DNA of 64,000 nt, taken from Escherichia coli (lineage in GTDB: Bacteria > Pseudomonadota > Gammaproteobacteria > Enterobacterales > Enterobacteriaceae). Where the stretch lies: the NCBI RefSeq assembly GCF_003018255.1, contig NZ_CP027440.1; one strand, written 5' to 3'. The position numbers were made by a program, and so were the translations under genes. This document shows, piece after piece, positions 30,812-37,778 of this stretch. Below the pieces are notes generated by a model, which worked only from the letters and a program-made list of their open reading frames with translations, ran no database searches and was not told the origin of the DNA. How positions within the stretch are numbered: position 1 is the first letter of the stretch; each line of letters begins with the position of its first letter.

Positions 30812-31109
30812 TACGCATTTGAAACGCCTGCAACGGTGAACAGTAATATATTTAAGCCCCAGGGAGTGGGGCGACAATGGTTTGCTAATGAATGATCCTG
30901 AACTTTATAATCTCCAGGCATAATTTCCAGGGGATTATTTGAGAGAAATACACAAAAGTGAGTTTTAACAAAGGTATTTATCAAGCCATAAATGTGACCT
31001 GCTTCGGATAAAAAAGATTAAGTATCGAAAAACCAATGATCCTCTTGCTGATGGTTATCAACAGTAATTAAGATGTGATTTGTTTTTCCGTAATCGCGAA
31101 AATATTGCC

Positions 31110-31520
31110 ATGACCATAAAAGAAAAAATCTCACAAAAATATCCCCATGCTTCCTTTTGTACTTTTGGCGATTCAGCAGCGTTGGCCGATCACCTCGCAA
31201 CGTTGATTGCGACTGGTGTTAAAACAGCTTCCTGTGGTTCGCTGGCGGGATGTATTGAAGACAACGCATTTCCGCTGATTGGTGAGTATAAGATTGTAGA
31301 AAATAGCCGTGGTGAGCCTGTCTGTGTTATCAGAGTGATTGGCCTGCATTTACTGCGCTTTTCTGATGTCTCCGCGGAGCTTGCCCGTAAGGAAGGTGAA
31401 GGTAACCTCAGTCTTGAATATTGGCGTAATGAACACCGTCGTTTTTTCCAGGCAGAAGGATGCTATTCACCCGAAATGGACGTTATCTTTGAAGAATATG
31501 CCCTTATTGACGTTGTGTAG
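31110..31520 (+). CDS. small PUA/ASCH-like domain protein (putative)
   Basis: ORF 31080..31520 (TTG); ATG at 31110 gives 136 aa; G-x-K-T motif (GVKTASCGS) reminiscent of ASCH domains; assignment tentative. Confidence 0.45.
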   Translation: MTIKEKISQKYPHASFCTFGDSAALADHLATLIATGVKTASCGSLAGCIEDNAFPLIGEYKIVENSRGEPVCVIRVIGLHLLRFSDVSAELARKEGEGNLSLEYWRNEHRRFFQAEGCYSPEMDVIFEEYALIDVV

Positions 31521-31770
31521 ATAACTATTTTTCTACGCGAAATAAGCTCTCAAACATAAAGTATCGCTAATTTTGTTTATTTTGCTATTTTTTACGTGAT
31601 GATTGTCACACTTATTGTTACTGCCCGTTTTGTCCATATTTATAACCAAATTTTTAATAGCTGCCTGAAATAGGGCTGTTTATTCTGCATAAAAATATTC
31701 GAAAATTCTTATTCTCTCCAGCGCGCTAATTTGGGCGAACACTTCCTGACTACCCTGCAATGAGGCTGAA

Positions 31771-32757
31771 ATGATGAATAAACGTTTTGTTATCAATATG
31801 GTGTCTTCGCTGTTATTAGGCGCTGCGCTAATTTCTGCGCCGCTCCAGGCAGCGGAAAAAGTCGTGGTGAATATCTCTAAAGTCGATGGTATGCCGTGGT
31901 TTAATCGCATGGGCGAAGGTGTGGTTGAGGCGGGTAAAGCCTTTGGTGTTAATGCGTCACAGGTGGGGCCTTCAAGTACTGATGCTCCGCAACAGGTTAA
32001 AATTATTGAGGATTTAATCGCCCGTAAGGTTAATGCAATTACAATTGTGCCAAACGATGCCAACGTGCTGGAACCGGTATTCAAAAAAGCGCGAGATGCC
32101 GGAATTGTGGTTCTGACCAACGAATCCCCCGGTCAGCCAAGTGCTAACTGGGATATCGAAATCATTGATAACGAAAAATTTGCCGCTGAATATGTTGAAC
32201 ATATGGCGAAACGCATGGGTGGCAAGGGCGGCTATGTGATTTACGTGGGTAGTTTGACCGTGCCGCAGCATAACTTATGGGCTGACTTGCTGGTGAAATA
32301 CCAGAAAGAGCATTACCCGGATATGCATGAAGTTACCCGCCGCATGCCGGTTGCCGAGAGTGTGGATGACTCACGTCGTACCACACTGGACCTGATGAAA
32401 ACCTATCCTGACTTGAAAGCGGTTGTCTCCTTTGGTTCAAACGGTCCGATTGGCGCGGGACGTGCAGTGAAAGAGAAACGGGCGAAAAATAAAGTCGCAG
32501 TCTATGGCATGATGATCCCTTCACAGGCGGCATCACTGATTAAAAGTGGTGATATCACCGAAGGGATTACTTACGATCCGGCCTCTGCAGGTTACGCACT
32601 CGCGGCCGTCGCCAGCACGTTGCTGAAGGGTGAAGAGATCAAACCTGGATTAGAAATGCAGAATCTCGGTAAGGCCGACGTAGATATGGATAAGCGAATT
32701 ATCCGTTTCCATAAGGTATTACTGGTCAACAAAGACAATATCGACTCACTTTATTAA
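31771..32757 (+). CDS. periplasmic sugar-binding protein of a CUT2 ABC transporter (LsrB/RbsB-like)
   Basis: 328-aa ORF with Sec signal peptide (MMNKRFVINMVSSLLLGAALISAPLQAAEK); type I periplasmic binding-protein fold; C-terminus LLVNKDNIDSLY resembles LsrB-type proteins. Confidence 0.8.
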   Translation: MMNKRFVINMVSSLLLGAALISAPLQAAEKVVVNISKVDGMPWFNRMGEGVVEAGKAFGVNASQVGPSSTDAPQQVKIIEDLIARKVNAITIVPNDANVLEPVFKKARDAGIVVLTNESPGQPSANWDIEIIDNEKFAAEYVEHMAKRMGGKGGYVIYVGSLTVPQHNLWADLLVKYQKEHYPDMHEVTRRMPVAESVDDSRRTTLDLMKTYPDLKAVVSFGSNGPIGAGRAVKEKRAKNKVAVYGMMIPSQAASLIKSGDITEGITYDPASAGYALAAVASTLLKGEEIKPGLEMQNLGKADVDMDKRIIRFHKVLLVNKDNIDSLY

Positions 32758-32767
32758 TCCATTTCTT

Positions 32768-32792
32768 CGGGGCGAAAGCCCCGATTCTTATT
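32768..32792 (+). terminator. GNRA-loop hairpin plus U-tract between binding-protein and ATPase genes (candidate intra-operon attenuator)
   Basis: CGGGGC-GAAA-GCCCCG followed by ATTCTTATT. Confidence 0.5.
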
Positions 32793-32805
32793 GCCAGGGG
32801 ATGCT

Positions 32806-34290
32806 ATGGAAACCTTCCTTTCCCTTCGTCATATCAACAAAACGTTTCATGCCACGCGAGCGCTGCGCGATGTTTCTCTCGACTTTATGTCGGGTGAGGT
32901 GCACTGCCTTGCCGGGCAAAACGGCTGTGGTAAATCGACGTTGATTAAAATTATGTCCGGTGTTTATCGCCCGGATGAGGGGGCGGAAATTACGCTTGGT
33001 GGGAAAAACTGGTCAAAGCTGACACCCGCCGCTTCGGTGGCGCAGGGGATTCAGGTGATTTATCAGGACCTCTCTTTATTTCCTAACCTGAGTGTCTGGG
33101 AGAATATCGCCGTGAATCACTATCACCACGGTCTGTTTGTTAACCGCCGTCGTCTGCGTGAGGTGGCGCAGGCGGCAATGACCAGTATTAACGTCACATT
33201 GCCACTGGATACGCTCGTTTCTGAGCTTTCAATTGCCCGCTGTCAGCTGGTGGCAATTTGCCGTGCACTGGCGCAGGACGCACGGTTGATCGTGATGGAT
33301 GAACCAACCGCTTCGCTGACCCATCAGGAAGTGCAAGGGTTATTACAGGTGGTGCATCAATTGCGGGAACGCGGGATCTGCGTGGTCTTCGTCAGTCATC
33401 GTCTGGAAGAAGTGATGGAAGTTTCCGACCGTATTTCAGTGCTGAAAGATGGTGAGCTGGTCGGGACCTTTCCGGCCGCAGAGATGACCACAAAACAACT
33501 CAGTTTTCTGATGACCGGCCAGGAGTTCGAATATCAGGTACGAGAGTTGTGGCAGGGAAAATCCAGCACCCCGGTGCTGGAGGTGCGTAATTTAAGTCGT
33601 CATGGGGAATATCAAAATATTAACTTGCGGGTGGAAGCGGGCGAAGTGGTGTCGATTGTTGGCCTGCTTGGTGCGGGGCGCACGGAATTATGTCTGAGTC
33701 TGTTTGGTATGACCCGACCGGATGCTGGTGAGATCCTCATCAACGGTCAGCCGGTTACACTGCATAGTAACCAGGACGCCATCCGCCACGGTATTGGTTA
33801 TGTTTCGGAAGATCGCATGTCGCGCGGTTTGGTGATGGCGCAATCTATTGAAGACAACATCATTAGCACTGTTTTTCACAAGGTAAAAGATCGCTTCGGC
33901 TTTCTGAGTGAAGCTAAAGTGCGTGACCTGGTGGACAGGCTAATCAAGGCATTGACCATCAAAGTCTCTGACCCACATCTCCCGGTGAATACGCTTTCCG
34001 GGGGTAACGCGCAGCGAGTATCGATCGCCAAATGGCTGGCGATTGGGCCACGACTGTTGATTCTCGATAGCCCGACTGTCGGTGTTGATATCGCCAACAA
34101 AGCAGGAATATACGGCATTATCAGCGATCTGGCGGCTCATGGCATTGCGGTATTGATGATCTGCGATGAAATTGAAGAAGCGTGGTATCAAAGCCACCGG
34201 ATTTTGGTAATGCAAAAAGGTCAGATCACCCATAGCTTCCTGCCTGACAGCAGTTCTCAGGCCAGGATTGCGGAGGTGGTAAATGGCTGA
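32806..34290 (+). CDS. sugar ABC transporter ATP-binding protein with duplicated ABC domains (RbsA-like)
   Basis: ORF 32791..34290; ATG at 32806; Walker A GQNGCGKST in the first half and degenerate GLLGAGRTE in the second half; LSGG signatures. Confidence 0.85.
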   Translation: METFLSLRHINKTFHATRALRDVSLDFMSGEVHCLAGQNGCGKSTLIKIMSGVYRPDEGAEITLGGKNWSKLTPAASVAQGIQVIYQDLSLFPNLSVWENIAVNHYHHGLFVNRRRLREVAQAAMTSINVTLPLDTLVSELSIARCQLVAICRALAQDARLIVMDEPTASLTHQEVQGLLQVVHQLRERGICVVFVSHRLEEVMEVSDRISVLKDGELVGTFPAAEMTTKQLSFLMTGQEFEYQVRELWQGKSSTPVLEVRNLSRHGEYQNINLRVEAGEVVSIVGLLGAGRTELCLSLFGMTRPDAGEILINGQPVTLHSNQDAIRHGIGYVSEDRMSRGLVMAQSIEDNIISTVFHKVKDRFGFLSEAKVRDLVDRLIKALTIKVSDPHLPVNTLSGGNAQRVSIAKWLAIGPRLLILDSPTVGVDIANKAGIYGIISDLAAHGIAVLMICDEIEEAWYQSHRILVMQKGQITHSFLPDSSSQARIAEVVNG

Positions 34291-35254
34291 ACTGAAAAAA
34301 CGCCATGAATTCTGGCTGGCATTACTGATTGTGGTGCTGTTTGTTGGCCTTGCCTGGCGCAGCGACGAGTTTCTGACATTCGGTAATTTGTACGATCTCG
34401 CCAATAACTATGCCATGTTGACTATTCTCGCCTGTGGTTTGTTTGTGGTGTTAATTTCCGGTGGGATTGATATTTCGTTTCCGGCAATGACCATCATTGC
34501 GCAATACGGCATGGTGCTGTTGCTGCAAAAAATTGGTGGCAACTTTGCTGTTGCGTTTGCCCTGGCGGGCGGCATCGGCATTTTACTTGGCTTAATTAAC
34601 GCCTTACTGGTTAATCGCCTACGGGTGCCTTCTATCATCATCACTATCTCGACGCTGAATATTTTCTATGGCCTGCTGTTATGGTTGAGTAAAGGTGTGT
34701 GGCTGTACGACTTTCCGCCGTGGTTTGAGCAGGGGGTTATGTTGTTCAAGTACACCGATGCTGATGGCTATGACTATGGCCTTGGTCTACCGCTGATCGC
34801 CATGATTACGGTGGTGCTGCTAACAGCGTTTATCATGAATTTCACCAGTGTAGGGCGCAAAATTTATGCCCTTGGCGGGAACCGTGAATCCGCCAGTCGC
34901 ATCGGCTTTAGTGTGCTGAAACTGCAACTTTTCGTCTATGGCTATATGGGATTGATGTCTGGTGCTGCGGGTGTAGTGCAGTCGTGGACGGTGATGACTG
35001 TCGCCCCCGATTCTCTTCTGGGTTATGAGCTGACAGTACTGGCTGCGGTGGTGCTTGGCGGCACTAGTTTGCTCGGCGGGCGCGGCACGTTAACCGGTAC
35101 TTTGCTCGGCGTGGTGTTGTTGGCAGTGATGCAAAACGGGCTAAATTTATTGGGAGTCTCGTCTTACTGGCAAACATTGATCACCGGCATCATCATCGTT
35201 GCCAGCATTAGCGCCACGGCGTGGAGTCAGCATCAGAACCGGAGTCTGCTATGA
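34283..35254 (+). CDS. ABC transporter permease (RbsC/LsrC-like)
   Basis: 323-aa polytopic membrane protein; start overlaps the ATPase stop by 8 nt. Confidence 0.8.
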   Translation: MAELKKRHEFWLALLIVVLFVGLAWRSDEFLTFGNLYDLANNYAMLTILACGLFVVLISGGIDISFPAMTIIAQYGMVLLLQKIGGNFAVAFALAGGIGILLGLINALLVNRLRVPSIIITISTLNIFYGLLLWLSKGVWLYDFPPWFEQGVMLFKYTDADGYDYGLGLPLIAMITVVLLTAFIMNFTSVGRKIYALGGNRESASRIGFSVLKLQLFVYGYMGLMSGAAGVVQSWTVMTVAPDSLLGYELTVLAAVVLGGTSLLGGRGTLTGTLLGVVLLAVMQNGLNLLGVSSYWQTLITGIIIVASISATAWSQHQNRSLL

Positions 35255-36207
35255 AAAAATCGTGGCGTAACAACGTTGAGTTTTACTTGATCGGCCTGCT
35301 GGTGCTAACTGTTGCAGCCTTCAGCATTACTATGCCGGAGATTTTCTGGTCGATAAGTAATTTCCAGTCCGTCGCTTCGCAAATGCCCGTGCTGGGCATT
35401 CTGGCGTTGGCTATGGCGGTGACCATGCTTTGCGGTGGCATTAACTTGTCAATTATAGCCACTGCTAACGCCTGTTCACTGGTGATGGCGTGGGTGGCGA
35501 CTCAGTATCCACCGGGTATTGCTACGGTTGTCGCTACGCTGCTGGCGGGCGCTGGCGCGGCGGTGATAATCGGTTTATGTAACGGCGTATTGATTGCTGG
35601 TATTCGAGTGTCGCCAATTCTTGCAACACTCGGGATGATGACGTTGCTCAAAGGGGTAAATATTCTGGTGACAGGCGGTAGCGCCATTGCCAATTATCCC
35701 TCATGGGTGCTGTGGTTGAATCATGCACAGTGGTTCGGTATTCCGCTACCGATGTGGTTGTTTACCGCAGTGGCGCTGGGGCTGTGGATATTGCTGGAGA
35801 AAACGCCGCTCGGTAAATCCATTTATCTGATTGGTTCTAACGAACGAGCAACACTTTACTCCGGTATTAACACTCGTCGGGTGCTGATATGGGTGTATGT
35901 CATTTCCGCCTTGCTTTGTGCGGTAGCGGCATTTTTGATGATGTCGAAACTCAACTCGGCTAAGGCCTCTTATGGCGAATCGTACTTGCTGGTGTCAATC
36001 CTCGCGGCAGTACTCGGCGGGGTTAATCCGGACGGCGGCAGCGGGCGGATAATTGGTATGGTGCTGGCGCTGTTTCTTCTGCAAATTATTGAAAGCGGCT
36101 TCAATATTCTCGGTATAAGCCCCTACCTGACGATGGCCTTATGGGGAACGTTGCTGCTCTGTTTCATTCAGGCTCGCGGCATGTTAGGGCTGGATCGGGT
36201 GGTTTAA
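35251..36207 (+). CDS. ABC transporter permease (RbsC/LsrD-like)
   Basis: ORF 35221..36207; ATG at 35251 overlaps the upstream stop (ATGA); 318 aa, polytopic. Confidence 0.8.
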   Translation: MKKSWRNNVEFYLIGLLVLTVAAFSITMPEIFWSISNFQSVASQMPVLGILALAMAVTMLCGGINLSIIATANACSLVMAWVATQYPPGIATVVATLLAGAGAAVIIGLCNGVLIAGIRVSPILATLGMMTLLKGVNILVTGGSAIANYPSWVLWLNHAQWFGIPLPMWLFTAVALGLWILLEKTPLGKSIYLIGSNERATLYSGINTRRVLIWVYVISALLCAVAAFLMMSKLNSAKASYGESYLLVSILAAVLGGVNPDGGSGRIIGMVLALFLLQIIESGFNILGISPYLTMALWGTLLLCFIQARGMLGLDRVV

Positions 36208-36293
36208 ATATTGGCTATATTCAATGGACGCGTTTTGCCGCGATGACATATCAGGCATCGCCAAATACACATAGCTAATCAGGAGTAAACACA

Positions 36294-37343
36294 ATGAAGA
36301 TCAAAGCTGTTGGTGCATATTCCGCTAAACAACCACTTGAACCGATGGATATCACCCGGCGTGAACCGCGACCGCATGATGTCAAAATCGAAATCGCTTA
36401 CTGTGGCGTCTGCCATTCCGATCTCCACCAGGTCCGTTCGGAGTGGGCGGGGACGGTTTACCCCTGCGTGCCGGGTCATGAAATTGTGGGGCGCGTGGTA
36501 GCTGTTGGTGATCAGGTAGAAAAATATGCGCCGGGCGATCTGGTTGGTGTCGGCTGCATTGTCGACAGTTGTAAACATTGCGAAGAGTGTGAAGACGGGC
36601 TGGAAAACTACTGTGATCACATGACCGGCACCTATAACTCGCCGACGCCGGACGAACCGGGCCATACTCTGGGCGGCTACTCACAACAGATCGTCGTTCA
36701 TGAGCGATATGTTCTGCGTATTCGTCACCCGCAAGAGCACCTGGCGGCGGTGGCTCCTTTGTTGTGTGCAGGGATCACCACATACTCGCCGCTACGTCAC
36801 TGGCAGGCCGGGCCGGGTAAAAAAGTGGGCGTGGTCGGCATCGGCGGTCTGGGACATATGGGGATCAAGCTGGCCCACGCGATGGGGGCGCATGTGGTGG
36901 CATTTACCACTTCTGAGTCAAAACGCGAAGCGGCAAAAGCCCTGGGGGCCGATGAAGTTGTTAACTCACGCAATGCCGATGAGATGGCGGCTCATCTCAA
37001 GAGTTTCGATTTCATTTTGAATACAGTAGCTGCGCCACATAATCTCGACGATTTTACCACCTTGCTGAAGCGTGATGGCACCATGACGCTGGTTGGTGCG
37101 CCTGCGACACCGCATAAATCGCCGGAAGTTTTCAACCTGATCATGAAACGCCGCGCGATAGCCGGCTCTATGATTGGCGGCATTCCAGAAACACAGGAGA
37201 TGCTCGATTTTTGCGCCGAACATGGCATCGTGGCTGATATAGAGATGATTCGGGCCGATCAAATTAATGAAGCCTATGAGCGAATGCTGCGTGGTGATGT
37301 GAAATATCGTTTTGTTATCGATAATCGCACACTAACAGACTGA
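36294..37343 (+). CDS. yahK: NADPH-dependent aldehyde reductase, Zn-dependent ADH family
   Basis: 349 aa; zinc-ligand motifs GHEIVG and CxxCxxC (CKHCEECEDG), Rossmann GIGGLGHMG. Confidence 0.9.
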   Translation: MKIKAVGAYSAKQPLEPMDITRREPRPHDVKIEIAYCGVCHSDLHQVRSEWAGTVYPCVPGHEIVGRVVAVGDQVEKYAPGDLVGVGCIVDSCKHCEECEDGLENYCDHMTGTYNSPTPDEPGHTLGGYSQQIVVHERYVLRIRHPQEHLAAVAPLLCAGITTYSPLRHWQAGPGKKVGVVGIGGLGHMGIKLAHAMGAHVVAFTTSESKREAAKALGADEVVNSRNADEMAAHLKSFDFILNTVAAPHNLDDFTTLLKRDGTMTLVGAPATPHKSPEVFNLIMKRRAIAGSMIGGIPETQEMLDFCAEHGIVADIEMIRADQINEAYERMLRGDVKYRFVIDNRTLTD

Positions 37344-37778
37344 AAAAATTAATAAACATCCTGTGGTTTAACATATTAACTTCGCTCCACTTAACTTTTT
37401 AGTTAAGGAGAGCGAAATAATATCAAAGTAGTGGTAAACCTATAGCGTAAATTCAGATTGTTAAATTAACTCCACTACTTTACACGTTAGTTATGAGCGA
37501 TTTCTGATAGTGTCTGGTTTAATCAGAGCTTTATTATCTGCGACGTTTATTTTTATTTAATAGAGCCACCTGCAAGTTGTTATTCCACCAGAGAGTGAAT
37601 CGCAAAGCAGGTAATCATTTCATCTGTATATCTGTATGCCAACTGGCATTCCATCTCTTTTTTCGCCGATATTTTGTTGTGATCGGCGACACTTCGCTTA
37701 AAAAAGCATCAGCAGTGGTTTCGCAGCTATGCGGTGTATAAAAAATGATCTCATGCAGATGTTTTGTGAATGTGTGGG

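Follow-up and report, generated by a model that had tools for sequence, protein, structure and literature searches.

Sugar ABC transporters of the kind treated here need their binding protein in excess. In malEFG and other ABC operons, the gene whose message is stabilised is invariably the one for the binding protein (Dar & Sorek 2018, PMC5927463). The protection comes from a 3' structure at which 3'-5' exonucleases stall once an endonuclease has cut further downstream, and such protective structures are conserved between enterobacteria (PMC5927463). In mglB-mglA, it is mglB that is stabilised, with a steady-state ratio of 2.65 (PMC5927463, Tables S3 and S6), and Term-seq places a 3' end 5 nt past the hairpin GGGCGCAGU-cuauu-ACUGCGCCC at this junction (PMC5927463). 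When the spacers of the K-12 operons araFGH, mglBAC, xylFGH and ytfQRT are extracted, structures are found at the same junction in all four. The mglB-mglA spacer carries a hairpin of -16.5 kcal/mol that lies 8 nt past the stop codon and is followed by the tail UUAUUGUA, and the hairpin of araF-araG (-19.2 kcal/mol) lies 14 nt past the stop and has no U tract, while the xylF-xylG spacer holds an imperfect G-C-rich hairpin and that of ytfQ-ytfR holds REP-type palindromes.

The Aau operon of Escherichia coli

The operon described here lies in a 64,000-nucleotide stretch of the non-K-12 E. coli contig NZ_CP027440.1, referred to in the following as the window, and corresponds to Aau, the accessory L-arabinose uptake ABC transporter (Z0415-Z0419) of EHEC (PMC11127945). 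Aau is induced by L-arabinose through AraC and adds to fitness in the mouse gut (PMC11127945). Its locus tags in O157:H7 Sakai are ECs_0374 to ECs_0378. The four genes of the transporter (Table 1), the first of which has an alternative ATG at 31771, are placed between a gene for an ASCH-domain protein, which adjoins yahJ, and yahK. The arrangement is a common and partly characterised one; the hairpin at its first junction is undescribed for the Aau operon, the paper on Aau mentioning no terminator, hairpin, stem-loop, intergenic element or stoichiometry (PMC11127945).

Table 1. Features of the Aau operon and of the junction between its first two genes, in window coordinates
Feature	Position	Strand	Remarks	Basis
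Periplasmic sugar-binding protein gene (Aau; Z0415 / ECs_0374)	31774..32757	+		ORF list; PGAP in an identical genome; Pfam Peripla_BP_4, E = 4.5e-63
RNA hairpin	32767..32784	+	stem 32767-32773 / 32778-32784, loop 32774-32777, -14.3 kcal/mol	sequence, fold, scan, energy
U-rich single-stranded tail UUCUUAUU	32785..32792	+	possible weak terminator U tract and/or site of a trimmed 3' end	
Shine-Dalgarno sequence AGGGGA of the ATPase gene	32796..32801	+	outside the hairpin, 11 nt downstream	sequence; PGAP start at 32806
ABC transporter ATPase gene (Z0416-7)	32806..34290	+	two ABC_tran domains	ORF list; PGAP; Pfam
Permease 1 gene (Z0418)	34283..35254	+	BPD_transp_2; overlaps the end of the ATPase gene	ORF list; PGAP; Pfam
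Permease 2 gene (Z0419)	35251..36207	+	BPD_transp_2; overlaps the end of permease 1	ORF list; PGAP; Pfam

Of 5426 complete E. coli genomes, 2217 carry the operon; it is missing from K-12-type strains. Genomes of the latter type, such as BLR(DE3), keep both of its ends (31473-31542 and 36136-36207 of the window; 2474-2543 and 2607-2678 of locus L083), the left remnant comprising the last 48 nt of the ASCH gene with 22 nt beyond it and the right one the final 72 nt of permease 2, annotated in these genomes as a pseudogene that is truncated at its N-terminus. Since both ends remain, the absence of Aau from these strains points to deletion of an older arrangement, whereas the locus has been presented as a horizontally acquired island (PMC11127945). 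A further difference between strains concerns codon 87 of the ATPase gene (window 33064-33066; about 21353-21355 of locus L082), which is CAG here and TAG in O157:H7 Sakai, where it truncates the ATPase. The Sakai codon matches the premature ATPase stop at nucleotide 259 reported for TUV93-0 (PMC11127945) and accounts for the lack of a listed ATPase gene beneath the junction in several O157 records. The operon also appears, at 99-100% identity to that of E. coli, on the 4.7-kb contig SFEK01000152.1, which is labelled as part of a Bacteroidales metagenome-assembled genome and is almost certainly mis-binned.

Upstream of the binding-protein gene, the sequence TGCCCGTTTTGTCCATA at 31622-31638 resembles an AraC half-site with two mismatches, and a weaker repeat follows 21 bp downstream. 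The half-site pattern shows no enrichment, the window having 27 matches where 44 would be expected; as a candidate, the site agrees with the published dependence on AraC.

A hairpin past the binding-protein stop codon

A preliminary description of the junction had proposed a hairpin, CGGGGC-GAAA-GCCCCG, followed by a U-rich tract and placed 11 nt after the stop of a binding-protein gene and ahead of an ATPase gene. The sequence at 32768-32792 agrees with this. The core stem-loop, read directly off the sequence, consists of CGGGGC (32768-32773), the GNRA tetraloop GAAA (32774-32777) and GCCCCG (32778-32783), forming six perfect G-C pairs; the stop codon is the TAA at 32755-32757, from which the core stem is at the 11th nucleotide, and Pfam recognises Peripla_BP_4 in the upstream gene product and a double ABC_tran in the downstream one. 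Folding and energy calculation add an outer U-A pair (32767/32784) that lengthens the stem to 7 bp and brings the energy to -14.3 kcal/mol. Beginning 9-10 nt past the stop, the hairpin would stand just outside the footprint of a terminating ribosome. The ATG of the ATPase gene lies 21 nt beyond its end, in a spacer of 48 nt. The letters at 32784-32792 are ATTCTTATT, and the tail that follows the extended stem, which may be written TTCTTATT, has 6 T in 8, the third and sixth positions being interruptions; a lenient threshold admits its score of -3.95. With seven pairs, six of them G-C, and a loop of 4 nt, the structure has the G-C-rich stem and short loop of a terminator, and as a stable stem-loop closing a cistron inside a polycistronic unit it also has the form of a protective 3' structure.

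Taken alone, the hairpin pattern is weak evidence against chance. A simple consensus terminator scan of 10 kb returned 12 sites where 10.6 were expected, with the junction site ranked first, and the plus strand of the window holds 14 hairpins at or below -14.3 kcal/mol, compared with 3-10 (mean 6.7) in dinucleotide shuffles. The chance of such a hairpin arising in a given 48-nt spacer is about 0.5%, and the 91-nt context around it folds with z = -2.0. That the hairpin is not a product of chance is shown instead by the comparative evidence across orthologues. Beyond the last permease stop, up to where yahK starts (36208-36293), the scan found no terminator-like hairpin; of all such sites in the operon, the internal one past the binding-protein gene is the strongest. 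The strong hairpins of the window also include the lac operator O1 palindrome TGTGTGGAATTGTGAGCGGATAACAATTTCACACA (58484-58520, minus strand), a sign that the lac operon lies close to the window's right-hand end.

Conservation across orthologous operons

Scanning a genome collection with alignment of the binding protein gave 80 loci; hairpins were scored in 81 loci, and 77 distinct spacers were obtained, spanning the Enterobacterales, Pasteurellaceae, Vibrionaceae and Aeromonas. The loci come from Klebsiella, Franconibacter, Mangrovibacter, Aeromonas, Symbiopectobacterium, Atlantibacter, Leclercia, Silvania, Providencia and Sodalis as well as Limnobaculum, Budvicia, Leminorella, Yersinia, many Pasteurellaceae, Morganella, Photobacterium and Vibrio, and the ATPase gene follows the binding-protein gene in all scanned loci. 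The spacers and their hairpins are unrelated in sequence between clades, yet nearly every spacer holds a G-C-rich hairpin. Scored with a perfect-stem finder at a threshold of -10 kcal/mol or better, 88% of the 77 distinct spacers contain such a hairpin (median best -16.0 kcal/mol), as against 0% and 1% of length-matched segments from the binding-protein and ATPase genes, respectively, and 8% of shuffled spacers, though phylogenetic non-independence inflates the spacer statistics. Imperfect hairpins occur in most of the roughly 12% of spacers that have no strong perfect one. The distance from stop codon to hairpin, usually 8-16 nt with a median of 14, is tighter than that from hairpin to start codon, which is variable (IQR 21-37 nt).

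In three clades whose stems can be aligned, changes on one side are compensated on the other. The Vibrio/Photobacterium/Morganella clade is 96.5% paired, and three pairs have changed on both sides; the Pasteurellaceae clade (96% paired) and the Yersinia clade (97%) each have four such pairs. The covariation score was not matched by any of 500 shuffles in each clade, and partner-slid controls were 12-69% paired. With the finder run alike on both strands, 53 spacers have their better hairpin on the mRNA strand and 12 have it on the other; since it is G-U pairs that make the mRNA strand fold better, this argues for selection on RNA and not on a DNA palindrome. Closer to E. coli, RNAalifold recovered only three pairs from an alignment of Escherichia, Klebsiella, Franconibacter, Symbiopectobacterium and Leclercia, whose stems differ in length and are out of register, indicating independent hairpins that offer no usable covariation. 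Within E. coli the junction is nearly invariant, which says nothing of selection there. Judged by this comparison of sequences, selection on the mRNA strand acts both on the structure of the hairpin and on where it lies. The GNRA loop highlighted in the preliminary description is present in E. coli and is not conserved among orthologues: GNRA accounts for 4 of 13 distinct tetraloops, and the loops range from GAAA in E. coli and GCGA in Franconibacter to CCUGC in Klebsiella and 3 nt in Symbiopectobacterium.

Some loci depart from the common form. In one Candidatus Symbiopectobacterium genome (L009, 6995-7010), the hairpin is reduced to a palindrome without a loop, CGGGGCGCCCCG, which may reflect decay of the element in a symbiont; two sister genomes have 8-bp stems with 3-nt loops. 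In some Yersinia and Budvicia loci (L025, L028, L031, L032 and L034), the spacers extend to 198-287 nt and contain long, highly structured insertions beside the hairpin or in its place, which we take to resemble enterobacterial repeats of the ERIC type.

Proposed protection of the message and possible termination

The preliminary description assigned the hairpin a role as a partial terminator or mRNA stabiliser that raises the stoichiometry of the binding protein. This reading gains indirect support from the conservation of the hairpin in structure and position, from the paralogous K-12 operons including mglB-mglA with its 3'-end data, from co-induction by arabinose, which makes any termination partial, and from the failure of Rfam families or repeats to account for the element. 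We consider it probable, at about 0.7, that the hairpin sets and protects a 3' end past the binding-protein cistron, so that the binding-protein message would outlast and outnumber that of the ATPase and permeases. The aau mRNA would be produced as one unit from the AraC-dependent promoter ahead of the binding-protein gene, with most polymerases continuing past the hairpin to the ATPase and permease genes. Two routes could then lead to a 3' end at about 32785-32792: some polymerases would terminate at the hairpin and its interrupted U tract, or an endonuclease of the RNase E type would cut the poorly protected downstream part, after which 3'-5' exonucleases would trim the transcript back until they stall at the G-C stem. 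In either case, the hairpin-capped binding-protein segment would persist while the ATPase/permease segment decays, resulting in an excess of binding protein.

In a rival reading, hairpin and U tract would together be purely a leaky Rho-independent terminator, the stoichiometry being fixed at transcription and decay playing no role. The E. coli element has much that such a terminator should have: no terminator-like site in 10 kb ranks above it, and the operon's end has none; its G-C stem is closed by a stable tetraloop and followed by 6 U in 8; and its tail scores better than that of any other among the 81 loci, with the median orthologue at -2.28. Across orthologues, T is enriched after distinct hairpins, though only at positions +2 to +4 (about 50%, compared with a background of 31% elsewhere in the spacer). 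Against this, the U tract is interrupted, and tails with 5 or more T in 8 occur in only 5 of the 81 loci. The nearest relatives that share the CGGGGC...GCCCCG core keep the hairpin and have no U tract, the tail being CTTAACCA (given also as CUUAACCA) in Klebsiella and CGCTAACA (also CGCUAACA) in Franconibacter, and the araF-araG hairpin does without one as well. Since the U tract is unconserved while the hairpin and its position are conserved, joined at most by a short patch rich in U, a structure protecting the 3' end fits better than a dedicated intrinsic terminator.

Expression data bear on the same point. Arabinose induces Z0415 26.5-fold, Z0417 43-fold and Z0418 7-fold by RNA-seq, fold changes that hide any absolute step at the junction (PMC11127945). 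Z0417 and Z0418, which lie downstream, being strongly co-induced, transcription crosses the hairpin and termination is at most partial. The fold induction of Z0417 equals or exceeds that of Z0415, so that there is no obvious drop, though a fold change cannot show one (PMC11127945). A microarray paper from 2007 lists only ECs0374 of the operon, as up at growth transition. A purely leaky terminator is unlikely, and the lack of conservation of the U tract favours the stabiliser half of the original either/or as the conserved function. In our estimate, protection from decay is what has been conserved, and weak termination is an addition in E. coli and in mglB-like cases.

Translation and other readings

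The hairpin might instead act on translation, occluding or exposing the ribosome-binding site of the ATPase gene and thereby damping its translation or coupling it to that of the binding protein, with RNA levels unaffected. Its placement between the stop codon and the Shine-Dalgarno sequence would suit such a role, and the latter is predicted to be mostly paired, with a probability of 0.72-0.87 in the Escherichia/Klebsiella/Franconibacter clade. The predicted partner is not the hairpin, however: the Shine-Dalgarno sequence lies outside it, 11 nt past its end, and in the window (32793-32830) the folding prediction pairs AGGGGA with UCCCUU from codons 6-8 of the ATPase gene. The pairing is clade-specific, with probabilities of 0.28-0.69 in the other nine loci checked, including Symbiopectobacterium; it is not accompanied by covariation and is explicable by conserved codons. 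The distance of the hairpin to the start codon is moreover widely variable, and that to the stop tighter. Control of translation by the hairpin is thus very unlikely, and the Shine-Dalgarno pairing, if it forms as modelled, could lower ATPase translation further.

It is likewise highly improbable that the 3' end proposed above releases a regulatory RNA, composed of the end of the binding-protein cistron, the hairpin and the U-rich tail, that binds Hfq or ProQ; if true, such a 3'-derived RNA would connect the uptake of arabinose with further regulons, one example being the virulence response of EHEC that is reported to depend on arabinose. Finally, the element might have no function in RNA: chance alone yields an equally strong hairpin roughly once in 10 kb of each strand, and the E. 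coli stem has perfect symmetry. Its reading as a random palindrome, as a site bound by protein at the DNA level such as an operator, or as a remnant of a REP, MITE or other mobile repeat is nevertheless rejected as extremely improbable, since the position is kept despite complete sequence turnover with compensatory changes, G-U pairs favour folding of the sense strand, and the element is single-copy per genome, with no Rfam match, unlike the REP of ytfQ-ytfR.

The protective reading would give the Aau arabinose transporter of pathogenic E. coli, itself described only recently, a further layer of control after transcription. The junction also provides a clean comparative example of a hairpin kept about 8-16 nt past a stop codon in several families of Gammaproteobacteria while its sequence has been fully turned over. 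When the operon is cloned or re-engineered, or when RNA-seq counts of Z0415 are compared with those of Z0416-9 gene by gene, a step at the junction is to be expected. A long-known design rule is confirmed, and no new question is opened.

Comparison with known systems

The closest structural precedents fall into repeats, terminators and hairpins at paralogous junctions. A permissive search of 31000-37500 with the Rfam 15 covariance models gave no match at the junction and five hits elsewhere, all at chance level. Among the 2217 genomes with the operon, the hairpin occurs at exactly one place per genome and is therefore not a REP element; neither does it resemble the REP-type sequence of the ytfQ-ytfR spacer. 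It shares with the REP stem-loops of malE-malF the setting of a stable structure in the spacer past the binding-protein gene. The malE-malF structure blocks 3'-5' exonucleases after downstream cleavage and leaves the binding protein in excess (PMC5927463). The malE-malF element is a multi-copy REP of about 35 nt, whereas that of Aau is a single-copy hairpin of 18 nt with a U-rich tail that could also terminate transcription.

Leaky, internal Rho-independent terminators resemble the Aau element in their G-C-rich stem, stable tetraloop and U-rich 3' tail just past a stop codon. In contrast to these, the U tract of Aau is interrupted and unconserved, and read-through is evident from the co-induction of the downstream genes. 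The araF-araG hairpin shares with that of Aau the arabinose substrate, the regulator AraC (PMC11127945) and the junction between binding-protein and ATPase genes, but has an 11-bp stem of unrelated sequence and the tail UGUGAACG, which is not U-rich.

The mglB-mglA hairpin belongs, like that of Aau, to an operon of the CUT2 sugar ABC family in which the ATPase gene follows the binding-protein gene, and the tails of the two have scores of -3.88 and -3.95, respectively. It is G-C-rich as well, with a 9-bp stem and a 5-nt loop of unrelated sequence in place of the GAAA tetraloop, and its 3' end has been determined experimentally, whereas the Aau hairpin is known here from its sequence. Set beside these systems, the Aau hairpin is most likely an ordinary stabiliser or leaky terminator distal to a binding-protein gene.
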